A stretch of 64,000 bases of DNA from Promethearchaeia archaeon (GTDB lineage Archaea > Asgardarchaeota > Lokiarchaeia > Sigyniarchaeales > SOKP01), in NCBI GenBank assembly GCA_029856145.1, contig JAHQWK010000016.1:1-64000 (forward strand), given 5' to 3'. Positions within the stretch are counted from its first letter, which is position 1. Each line of letters begins with the position of its first letter. Positions 35,624 to 38,692 of the stretch are shown piece by piece. A program made the position numbers and the translations under genes. Under the pieces are notes generated by a model. It was given only the letters and a program-made list of their open reading frames with translations. It did no database searches and was not told the origin of the DNA.

Positions 35624-36771
35624 AAAAAGTAAAATTAGAAAAATCAAAAGGCGAAACTTACTATATTAAAGGAAAGGGTATTCCTAAAGGATGCAAATAT
35701 TGTTTAAAAGGATCTAAAGTAGTTTTATTTTTAAATGGTATCTGCCAAAAACCAGATCATTGTTCTTGGTACTGTCCAATTTCAGAAGAAAGGAGAGGGA
35801 AAGATATAACATTTGCTGATGAAATACAAATTAAAAATAAAGAAGAATTACTCCAAGAAATTGATATAATTAATGCTCAAGGAATGAGTATTACTGGGGG
35901 AGAACCACTTTCAGAATTAAATCTTGAAAAAACTATTGATTATATTAATTATGTTAAAGCAGCGAAAGGAAAAAAGTTCCACATCCATTTATATACAAAT
36001 GGTATTGATTTTAATGAAAATATTGCTAAAAGACTTTCTCTTGCGGGATTAGATGAAATAAGATTCCACCCTGCAAGAAAACACTGGTTAAATATTAAAA
36101 AGGCTCTAAATAAAAAAATAAGTGTAGGAGCAGAAGTTCCAGTTATCCCAGGAAATAAAAATAAAAAGTATCTTGAGGAATTTATACGTTATTTAGACAA
36201 TATCGGTGTAGATTTTATTAATTTAAATGAATTTGAATTTTGTTTTCCTAATAGTCAGTCACTTAAGGATCGAGGATTCAAATTGAAAAAAGATTCAATT
36301 GCTGCTGTTGTCAATAGTCAAGAAACAGCTTTTAATCTAATTCGAAAATTAGGGACTGAAGTTAATATAAAGATGCATTTCTGTTCAATAAGAGCTAAAG
36401 ATTATCATCAATTGAAGAATAGATATATTCGGAGAGCTAATAATGTTAAATTACCTTATGAAGTAATTACTGAAGAAGGACTTTTACTATATGCACAAAT
36501 TGAAGGAGAAGAAAAAGAACTGGATAAATTTTATGAAAATCTATTATTTGATCTCAAAATTCATGATAAATTGTTATCCTATGAAGAAAAATATATTAGA
36601 ATGCCCTTCTATATTTCAATCGAAGATCATGTCATATCCTTAATAGAAAGATATGAGCTAAAAGGATATATAATAGAAACTTTACCTTTTAGACGTTTAA
36701 AATACAAACAAATAACAGAAAAGACTCCTATAAAAGTATTTAAGAATGAAAATGGTCTTAATGGAAATTAA
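35620..36771 (+). CDS. Radical SAM protein
   Basis: GCKYC, variant cluster motif CQKPDHCSWYC, ITGGEP, HLYTNG, GLDEIRFH. Confidence 0.88.
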   Translation: MKKVKLEKSKGETYYIKGKGIPKGCKYCLKGSKVVLFLNGICQKPDHCSWYCPISEERRGKDITFADEIQIKNKEELLQEIDIINAQGMSITGGEPLSELNLEKTIDYINYVKAAKGKKFHIHLYTNGIDFNENIAKRLSLAGLDEIRFHPARKHWLNIKKALNKKISVGAEVPVIPGNKNKKYLEEFIRYLDNIGVDFINLNEFEFCFPNSQSLKDRGFKLKKDSIAAVVNSQETAFNLIRKLGTEVNIKMHFCSIRAKDYHQLKNRYIRRANNVKLPYEVITEEGLLLYAQIEGEEKELDKFYENLLFDLKIHDKLLSYEEKYIRMPFYISIEDHVISLIERYELKGYIIETLPFRRLKYKQITEKTPIKVFKNENGLNGN

Positions 36772-37219
36772 AAAGGTAACTTTAAAAGATTTAAAGCGAA
36801 TCGTAAATCTTGAGCAAAAAATTTTTAAAAAGAATGCATTTTCAAAGGATTTAATAAAAAATTTGATTGAAAATAATGCACTCTTTTTAAAATTGGAAAT
36901 TGGTAACGTAAAAAAAAAATTAATTGGTTTTATAATAGTTATAATGGATAAAAAGGATAGAGCCAATATGATTAATTTTCTTATTAAACCAGAATTTCAA
37001 AATAAAGGTTTTGGTTCATATATTCTTCAAAAAACTATAGATAAAATAAAAGATTTAAAGGGAATTAAAAAAATAGTATTAAATGTTCAAATAAGTAATT
37101 CTGCTGCTATTAAATTGTATGAAAAATTTAAATTCAAAAAAAATCCAGCAATTCTTGAAAATTACTATCCATCTGGAGAATCTGCGTTTCTTATGGAATT
37201 GAAATTAGAAATTAACTAA
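36746..37219 (+). CDS. rimI: RimI/Ard1-like GNAT N-acetyltransferase
   Basis: QNKGFGS, NSAAIKLYEKF, NYYPSGESA. Confidence 0.85.
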   Translation: MKMVLMEIKKVTLKDLKRIVNLEQKIFKKNAFSKDLIKNLIENNALFLKLEIGNVKKKLIGFIIVIMDKKDRANMINFLIKPEFQNKGFGSYILQKTIDKIKDLKGIKKIVLNVQISNSAAIKLYEKFKFKKNPAILENYYPSGESAFLMELKLEIN

Positions 37220-37313
37220 AACTAAAACTTATAAATAAATTCTATTATATTTTTTGTAAATATATCAATTTAATTATTTTACGAGAATTTAAAATAAAAG
37301 GTGTTAAATAAAA

Positions 37314-37466
37314 GTGGCTCCAGCAGATAAAGAACTACAAGAAGAAATTAAAAAAGGCGTTTCACTTCAAAAGGTCGATGAAGCAGAGTTAAAGAAAAGA
37401 GAAGAAGAAAAAAAGAAACGCATGGAAGAATTAGAAAAAGTTAAAGAAGCTTTAGGAGAAAAGTAA
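37314..37466 (+). CDS. Unannotated 50-aa peptide with WH2-like motif and charged helix
   Basis: GTG start after AGGTG SD-like site; MAPADKELQEEIKKGVSLQKVDEAELKKREEEKKKRMEELEKVKEALGEK; T-rich tract downstream. Confidence 0.75.
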   Translation: MAPADKELQEEIKKGVSLQKVDEAELKKREEEKKKRMEELEKVKEALGEK

Positions 37467-37618
37467 ACGGCTTTACATATTTAATAGAGTTAGTTTTTAT
37501 CTTTTTTATTTATTTTATTTTTCTTAGCAATAATCTTCAAGTCAAATTGAATTAAGCTTTTCTTAAATTTTGAATTAATTATAAATAAATAGAATTTTTT
37601 GATGAGTCAGTTTTAGAT

Positions 37619-38692
37619 TTGAAAATTCTCAACATAGATCAAAAACATGGAGAAGTTACAGTTAAGACTGAAAGCCTTAACGATCTGTGGTCATTATATA
37701 ATATTATCATTAAAGATGATCAAGTGTCTTCCCTAACTCAAAGAAGAGTTGTTCTTAAAGAAGGAACTTCAGGCGAGCGTAAATTAATGAAATTAAAACT
37801 CAAAGTTGAATCTGTGTCTTTTCATGAATTTTCAAATCGATTAAGAATAAAAGGTAAAATTTTAGAAGGACCAGAGGATTATGTTAGCTTTGGAACTTAT
37901 CATACATTTAATATAGAAGTTTCTCAAAAGTTAACAATAATTAAAGAAAATTGGTTAAAAAATGAATTAAGAAGACTAAAAGAGACCTCAAAATTCGAAT
38001 CAAACTTTATTACATTAATTATTGGAATTGAAACCGGTTTGGCAACCTTAGCTCTTATCACAAATTTTAGCCATAATAGGATAGCTACAATTAGAAAAAA
38101 CATACCAGGTAAAAGATATAAACAAACTTATAGAAATAAGGCATTAAATGAATTTTTTACAGATATTCAGAAAGTAGTAATAGAAAATATTAAAAACTTG
38201 GAGATAAATTTAATCATTGTATGTGGACCTGGAAATACCAAAGATAATTTTATAAATTTTCTTCAAAAAACACCTAGTTTTGACTTTAAAGGTAAAATTG
38301 AGACTTGTCATGCAAGTTCTGGGACTGAAAGCGCAATTAGAGAAACTCTAAAATCAAAAAAGTTAGATAGTCTTAAAAATAAAATTAAAGTTTTACAAGA
38401 AGCTGAGAAGATAGAAAATATAATGACACAATTTGCCACAGATGCTGATCTTATTGTTATAGGCCTTGATGAGGTGTCTAAAGCTTCTGAAAAAGGAGCA
38501 ATTAAAGAGTTATTGATAGCGGATGTATTAATTAGAGGATCTTCAAAAAAAAATAAACTAAAAATTGAAGAAATTATAACAAGTGTTGAAGATACTGGTG
38601 GAAAAATTAGTATTATGAGCACAGAAAATCTAACTGGAGAACAATTAGTAGGTCTAGGATCAATAATAGGAATTTTACGATATAAACTCTGA
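37619..38692 (+). CDS. pelA: mRNA surveillance protein Pelota
   Basis: ESLNDLWSL, RLRIKGKI, GTYHT, CGPGNTK, GIIGILRY-like C-terminus. Confidence 0.95.
   Translation: MKILNIDQKHGEVTVKTESLNDLWSLYNIIIKDDQVSSLTQRRVVLKEGTSGERKLMKLKLKVESVSFHEFSNRLRIKGKILEGPEDYVSFGTYHTFNIEVSQKLTIIKENWLKNELRRLKETSKFESNFITLIIGIETGLATLALITNFSHNRIATIRKNIPGKRYKQTYRNKALNEFFTDIQKVVIENIKNLEINLIIVCGPGNTKDNFINFLQKTPSFDFKGKIETCHASSGTESAIRETLKSKKLDSLKNKIKVLQEAEKIENIMTQFATDADLIVIGLDEVSKASEKGAIKELLIADVLIRGSSKKNKLKIEEIITSVEDTGGKISIMSTENLTGEQLVGLGSIIGILRYKL

Follow-up and report, generated by a model that had tools for sequence, protein, structure and literature searches.

The actin regulators known from Asgard archaea are profilins and gelsolins (PMC9433394; 10.1101/2025.11.30.690169). 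The two-domain gelsolins of these organisms carry a WH2-like motif (LVDV, LKDV or LRRV), a described archaeal actin-binding element (PMC9433394; 10.1101/2025.11.30.690169). A search of the accessible literature found no description of a free-standing WH2- or thymosin-like archaeal protein. The gene analyzed here lies in a 64,000-nucleotide stretch of DNA from a Promethearchaeia archaeon (the window) and encodes a 50-aa protein that a preliminary description, made from the sequence alone, had proposed as a WH2/beta-thymosin-like regulator binding actin monomers. As a so far undescribed actin regulator of archaea it is a good candidate, though an unproven one, and we put the probability that its product is a single actin-binding module working like WH2 or beta-thymosin at about 0.5.

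The gene, its signals and its neighbors

The coordinates of the gene, its parts and its surroundings are given in Table 1. Comparison across 20 congeneric genomes (190 pairs) yielded a mean dN of 0.057, a mean dS of 0.83 and a dN/dS of 0.068, and the gene is under strong purifying selection. Congeneric identity amounts to 82-94% for the peptide, which exceeds the 72-87% of Pelota and the 63-80% of the neighboring GNAT gene. The start codon is ATG, GTG or TTG among these genomes, and the two that lack the exact Shine-Dalgarno-like site carry one-base variants of it. The upstream block, whose conservation contrasts with the coding dS, includes the TATA-like element TTATAAATA and is probably the gene's own promoter, and the oligo-T tracts are a probable archaeal terminator. 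All three non-coding features are conserved far above synonymous sites. A standalone ORF with a Shine-Dalgarno-like site and a T-rich tract downstream had been noted before, and each of these elements is present and conserved among congeners. Because the frame is kept, dN/dS is low and the non-coding signals are conserved, the gene is real and translated, and the promoter-like block, the Shine-Dalgarno-like site and the oligo-T tracts make it probably its own transcription unit. The gene had also been called unannotated, which is true of the list of open reading frames used for the preliminary description but not of the public collections, where the identical protein is found on 15 contigs; its relatives there are labeled 'hypothetical protein' (Promethearchaeota). 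No RNA data set is listed as containing the stretch, and in a single run labeled metatranscriptomic coverage was limited to parts of the Pelota gene.

Table 1. Positions of the 50-codon gene, its signals, its two neighbors and a ten-repeat relative (window coordinates except for the last line).
Feature	Position	Strand	Details
GNAT acetyltransferase, upstream syntenic neighbor	36746..37219	+	Pfam Acetyltransf_1, E 2.5e-14
Upstream block AAACTAAAACTTATAAATAAATTCTATTATA	37219..37249	+	contains TATA-like element 37228-37239; at least 90% conserved in 20 congeneric loci
Shine-Dalgarno-like AAGGTG	37298..37303	+	10 nt 5' of start; 18 of 20 congeneric loci
50-aa protein CDS	37314..37466	+	GTG start, TAA stop, 50 codons
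WH2-like part DKELQEEIKKGVSLQKV, residues 5-21	37326..37376	+	amphipathic helix, then G-x-x-L-x-K-V; aligned to N-WASP WH2, E 0.012
E/K/R-rich helix, residues 22-47, core REEEKKKRMEEL	37377..37454	+	most conserved part across families
Oligo-T tracts	37493..37524	+	conserved in 20 congeneric loci
Pelota/eRF1-like, downstream syntenic neighbor	37619..38692	+	Pfam eRF1_1/2/3
Ten-repeat protein, Lokiarchaeum ossiferum	L039:1477-2943	-	adjoins a YggS-like gene and a thermosome gene

The spacers as a whole (37219-37313 and 37467-37618) are conserved across the 20 species far above synonymous sites, and beside the TATA-like block and the T tracts they hold the further conserved elements TGTAA..ATATCAATTTA.ATTATTTT and AATTAAGCTTTTCTT.

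The gene is separated from its neighbors by 94 and 152 nt. The order rSAM-GNAT-peptide-Pelota is found at all 20 congeneric loci, and its GNAT-peptide-Pelota core is complete in six of eight loci from other genera of the same family. Within a second family some members retain this core, and in a third Pelota adjoins the gene; adjacency to GNAT and Pelota is gone in several genera still carrying the 50-aa gene. Because the promoter block and the terminator appear to belong to this gene alone, we take the synteny for retained gene order, and an operon that includes Pelota seems unlikely.

The module and its resemblance to WH2 and beta-thymosin

About 248 homologous clusters of 49-51 aa were returned by a word-indexed search, and 81 cluster representatives at E<=0.001 by an exhaustive profile search. 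The range of the module was surveyed in 301 sampled genomes of the phylum. It was found in 63 of the 68 that belong to the window's family and in all 7 that belong to a second one (70 of 75, Loki-type); the 225 other genomes gave no match (0/225). One further weak match among the 301 genomes was confined to the E/K helix. Two further families of the same order also have the module, and as far as these searches reach the family is confined to one archaeal order (Loki-type Asgard). The genome of the window holds the 50-aa form only, and a search of it with module profiles did not detect the ten-repeat form described below.

Residues 6-21 of the protein read KELQEEIKKGVSLQKV. The earlier reading of the peptide as an amphipathic helix, an LxKV motif and an E/K helix holds, and the residues of the pattern L..I..G..L.KV, whose conservation in homologs had been made the touchstone of the proposal, were found to be kept: within the close family I12, G15, L18, K20 and V21 do not vary, nor do K14 and V16. 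Further along, all 29 small proteins compared from four families share E32, K35 and R36, and the stretch equivalent to residues 22-47 is helical in AF2 models of homologous modules. Orthologs from other families carry LKKV (ELKKAIEAGASLKKV), and in the type found in L. ossiferum and Harpocratesius repetitus the spacer is longer by two residues and reads MSDDELRKEIEEHDKSKMAKV.

The Pfam check that the preliminary description had suggested came out negative, the WH2 model PF02205 (gathering cut-off 23.1 bits) giving no match on the window peptide at E<=10. The best relative reached 13.1 bits (E 0.079, below that cut-off), and matches were confined to two of the 29 small relatives and two of the 43 repeat units, with best E-values of 0.023-0.031. 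A six-frame scan of the window's genome with PF02205 returned one weak match, in an unrelated 291-aa helical ORF, and DUF3006 and DUF7067 match more of the small proteins than WH2 does. Pfam Thymosin (PF01290) did not match the peptide or ten orthologs at E<=10, and the signature LKKTETQEKN is not present in the family alignments. When the peptide, these ten orthologs, the fusions and the repeat proteins were scanned with Pfam and NCBIfam, no family scored above threshold for the module. Judged on sequence, membership of the peptide in Pfam WH2 (PF02205) or Pfam Thymosin (PF01290) could not be established.

Profile comparisons against the PDB gave marginal matches to both kinds of protein. With the close-family profile, the tandem WH2 of N-WASP was the second match of 177,635 sequences (E 0.012), and L8, I12, G15, V16, L18, K20 and V21 fell in register with the N-WASP pattern LLxxIxxGIxLKKV. 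The arrangement by which WH2 is recognized, an amphipathic helix followed at canonical spacing by an LKK[TV]-type motif, is found in the peptide family. A sister subfamily (EIEEHDKSKMAKV) has beta-thymosin spacing, and its profile had thymosin beta-4 as top PDB match (E 0.022). By language-model features the nearest named clusters of the peptide were Thymosin (0.87 and 0.86, below the tool's 0.9 line), which serves as a lead only. The repeat-unit profile matched no WH2 or thymosin chain in the PDB. The strict pattern L...I..G..L.KV would turn up by chance 0.15 times in 1.07 million residues, and a loosened form of it occurs at chance level, at about 8 per proteome; the bare motif is only modestly unusual, and such a short motif is low in information. 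The resemblance to WH2 and thymosin is thus consistent and in register, yet marginal in statistical terms.

A motif of this kind was also seen in P0191, a 762-aa eukaryote-like protein from a JGI metagenome contig of 2448 bases, which has FHA, PP1-binding and two SAP domains and a weak Pfam WH2 match (E 0.0021). It contains more than a dozen TPLRNEIKAGxxLRxV repeats, whose match covers the initial half of the Asgard profile (E 4.2e-5), and therefore the short motif also occurs in a nuclear-looking context.

Ten-repeat and fused relatives

Genome searches of the second family revealed proteins of 480-500 aa composed of about ten tandem 46-residue units with the consensus ELLKEIKEGPKLKKIDEEELKEYEKEKQKRLKEISKLKEKL. 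Homology between the 50-aa family and this unit spans the entire module (hhalign probability 97.9%, E 5.6e-13). Over 43 repeat units a single column is invariant, the Leu of LxK[VI], equivalent to L18, and the Arg of K-R-[LM] comes close to invariance. Besides the L. ossiferum locus of Table 1, ten-repeat proteins are encoded at L037, L038, L040 and L042-L045, likewise beside a YggS-like gene and a thermosome gene. In AF2 models of the ten-repeat protein, helices of about 37 residues (pLDDT ~80) alternate with loops of about 9 residues (pLDDT <50) that contain GxxLxKID; at a pTM of 0.17 there is no confident compact fold, and a compact alpha-solenoid of repeats is not supported.

Proteins co-immunoprecipitated with a Lokiactin antibody from L. 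ossiferum have been reported in a study that discusses gelsolins, profilins and an Arf GTPase (10.1101/2025.11.30.690169). They are listed under private locus tags with masses in its Supplementary Table 2, and 11 tags are linked to named proteins in its Supplementary Table 3 (10.1101/2025.11.30.690169). As an exact look-up of the ten-repeat sequences gave no match, the ten-repeat protein was mapped by mass and gene order: two gelsolins were placed in the L. ossiferum genome, giving 1127 bp per tag, and candidates were assigned by interpolation and mass. The L. ossiferum protein (488 aa, monoisotopic mass 56.414 kDa) has an interpolated tag of 4086 and matches GNAMCCOK_04085 (56.41 kDa) by mass and gene order. 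That entry had a log2 ratio of 4.53 (adjusted p 0.0021), higher than those of Lokiactin (4.44) and 2DGel1 (3.97), and was identified by 44 peptides with 70.5% coverage and 366 spectra, a spectral count second only to actin (10.1101/2025.11.30.690169); it goes unmentioned by the authors of that study. We read the enrichment of the ten-repeat protein as association with Lokiactin; co-immunoprecipitation does not by itself establish direct contact, and direct binding is putative.

The small L. ossiferum ortholog is probably GNAMCCOK_02436 (8.24 kDa), whose mass equals that of a 69-aa form starting at an upstream GTG; the interpolated tag of the ortholog is 2437.5. This entry was detected in the proteome and by 5 peptides in the Lokiactin co-immunoprecipitation, where its enrichment was not significant (log2 0.57, adjusted p 0.105) (10.1101/2025.11.30.690169). 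For the top entry, GNAMCCOK_04250 (20.61 kDa), two ORFs near the expected place have the right mass, one ribosomal protein L1-like and the other GTP cyclohydrolase I-like by eye; the mapping is ambiguous, and the entry may be a housekeeping protein. Strongly enriched entries that the published text does not discuss include GNAMCCOK_00333, 02751, 04250, 02875 and 02871 (10.1101/2025.11.30.690169).

A word-indexed search for longer homologs had found none and was too insensitive, since fused forms exist. In about 35 clusters the module stands C-terminal to a domain of 130-140 residues that matches Pfam Profilin below threshold (E 2.5e-4), is modeled by AF2 as a profilin fold (pLDDT ~85) and has OdinProfilin (E 5.6e-10, TM 0.88, rmsd 1.6 Å) and LokiProfilin 1 and 2 as top Foldseek matches. 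At the level of predicted structure, fusion of the module to an Asgard profilin fold is confirmed. The module in this fusion is modeled as two helices, the first LREELMNGLIDFFKKG and the second 24 residues long, joined by a low-confidence loop (GKLEKPDDF). In the AF2 models of homologous modules (pTM 0.17 and 0.47) the helix ends before the GxxLxK loop, where pLDDT falls below 50-60, and tertiary packing is not confidently predicted, a picture that fits a peptide ordering on its partner and not a stable solenoid.

The proteins of these roughly 35 clusters (P0212, P0174, P0185 and alignment A5) are 250-300 aa long; the profilin fold is followed by one to four copies of the module and then, at the C-terminus, by a conserved domain of about 45 residues (TDYIYDDFQLLRVKHKI), which also follows single modules in proteins of 99 and 163 aa (P0182, P0204). 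In the window's genus, single modules are flanked by leucine-rich repeats or a small GTPase on one side and a ribbon-helix-helix domain on the other. Proteins with this arrangement (L046-L053, P0183, P0186) have a longer-spacer module, RSxIMSELKK...GxYLEKPDEEE, and their ribbon-helix-helix domain shows weak NCBIfam matches to aCcr1/RelB-type proteins. A differently arranged related module was found at L054 in the same genus, where the FIRTAIR helix of a 148-aa ORF lies upstream of the module.

The window's genome encodes four actin-family proteins, the best actin at G000:C7:58279-59391, and has two profilin-like ORFs. The latter (142-143 aa; G000:C18:81846-82085 and G000:C4:5958-6332; below threshold in Pfam, E 0.013 and 8.5e-5) include one, at G000:C18:81846-82085, that is on the window's contig about 18 kb past the window end.

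Proposed mode of action, rival readings and comparison with known systems

The actin link of the module is supported by the homology of the repeat unit, by the enrichment of the ten-repeat protein with Lokiactin and by the profilin fusion. The 50-aa protein is a single copy, encoded on its own, of a module that only Loki-type Asgard archaea were found to have and that is made up of a short amphipathic helix (L8, I12), the Gly-x-x-Leu-x-Lys-Val stretch and a charged helix of 25 residues. Most likely each module binds one molecule of the archaeon's own actin. On this reading the geometry would be that of eukaryotic WH2 and beta-thymosin, with the amphipathic helix placed in the barbed-face cleft, the LxKV stretch extended along the actin surface and the long conserved helix supplying additional contacts. 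The single module may hold or shuttle actin monomers, and the ten-repeat relatives may line up or decorate several actin subunits; we infer an effect of the module on actin polymerization. The wider proposition, that Loki-type Asgard archaea have a true WH2/beta-thymosin-type monomer-binding module, either homologous or independently invented and used as a free peptide, in ten-repeat proteins and in profilin, LRR and GTPase fusions, is put forward tentatively, at somewhat less than even odds.

The main rival to actin binding is that the module is a charged helix-loop-helix adaptor for another partner (profilin, a GTPase-pathway protein, or another module through a coiled coil), in which case the ten-repeat protein would have co-purified with Lokiactin indirectly or non-specifically and the resemblance to WH2 would be due to chance. 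Conservation does peak outside the WH2-like part, in the E/K/R helix (EEKKKRMEEL), and a helix of this kind does not characterize WH2; the module also stands in non-actin contexts, between LRR or small-GTPase and ribbon-helix-helix domains, the Pfam WH2 threshold is not reached, the motif is low in information, and the small ortholog is not enriched with Lokiactin. We nevertheless hold such an adaptor to be unlikely, given that the ten-repeat protein had a ratio above that of actin itself and the next spectral count after it, that three independent weak signals of similarity (N-WASP, thymosin beta-4 and the language model) converge on WH2/thymosin, and that the profilin fusion parallels the profilin-gelsolin fusions of Asgard archaea (Supplementary Table 3, 10.1101/2025.11.30.690169).

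Two lesser rivals concern where, and in which process, the protein acts. Co-immunoprecipitation does not distinguish G-actin from F-actin, and a repeat helix of about 37 residues would measure about 5.5 nm, near the axial subunit spacing of one actin strand, with ten such helices joined in a row by flexible loops in the AF2 model; the module could then bind the filament side with one copy on each subunit, much as nebulin or tropomyosin does, and the 50-aa protein would be a weak filament binder or stabilizer. This seems quite improbable to us, as a single module would hold a filament only weakly, the register of the motif is that of monomer-binding WH2, and the fusion partner profilin binds monomers. 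Small Lys/Glu-rich proteins are often ribosome binders, and the gene order with GNAT and Pelota has long been kept (20 of 20 congeneric and 6 of 8 other-genus loci), as would suit a role in translation or ribosome rescue with Pelota and the RimI-like acetyltransferase. The likelihood of such a role is very slight: the gene is probably monocistronic (its own promoter-like block, Shine-Dalgarno-like site and terminator; 94 and 152 nt to the neighboring genes), several genera that retain it have lost the adjacency, the Pfam and NCBIfam scans gave no match to a translation-related family, and the paralogous forms of the module point to actin.

Should the wider proposition be true, a third class would join the profilins and gelsolins among the actin regulators of archaea. 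If the module binds actin, the pre-eukaryotic cytoskeleton would gain monomer-holding peptides and multi-module proteins, possibly nucleators, and the origin of the WH2 motif would become testable with a 50-residue synthetic peptide. Because the range is a single order, the finding bears on how Loki-type archaea build protrusions and not necessarily on the eukaryotic ancestor.

The likeness to WH2 (PF02205; N-WASP, WAVE, WIP, MIM) resides in a short amphipathic helix, a Gly and L-x-K-V at canonical spacing, the family reading LQEEIKKGVSLQKV where N-WASP-type sequences have LLDQIRQGIQLKKV in the PDB profile search, and more tentatively in the position of LxKV, in AF2 models of homologous modules, within a low-confidence loop after the helix. 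Unlike WH2, the peptide family scores below the Pfam threshold, has Gln in place of the second Leu of the LL pair, is restricted to one archaeal order and has an obligatory, highly conserved charged helix of 25 residues after the motif; its actin binding is putative. It resembles beta-thymosins (thymosin beta-4, Ciboulot, tetrathymosin; PF01290) in layout, as a free acidic peptide of 45-55 residues in which an LKK[TV]-type motif would separate an N-terminal from a C-terminal helix, and in the existence, as in animals, of both single-module and multi-repeat versions; sister-family orthologs start MSDDELRKEIEEHDKSKMAKV, with thymosin beta-4 as top PDB match only at E 0.022. The Asgard peptides differ from them in having neither a Pfam Thymosin match nor LKKTETQEKN, in a C-terminal helix that is much longer and of different sequence, and, in the window's subfamily, in the shorter WH2 spacing.

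Tandem-WH2 proteins (Spire, Cordon-bleu, VopL/VopF) find a possible counterpart in the relatives of about 490 aa with ten modules, one of which co-purifies with Lokiactin and which share the architecture of proteins that gather several actin monomers, whereas the units of these relatives recur every 46 residues and each include a long helix, and nucleation by them is putative. The motif of the Asgard gelsolins is a four-residue linker element inside a folded protein, unlike the independent module and free gene described here, and the ProGel proteins offer a precedent for a profilin fused to an actin-binding element (10.1101/2025.11.30.690169). Given its obligatory charged helix, its free and ten-repeat forms and its single-order range, the module would be at most a variant of the WH2/thymosin kind.
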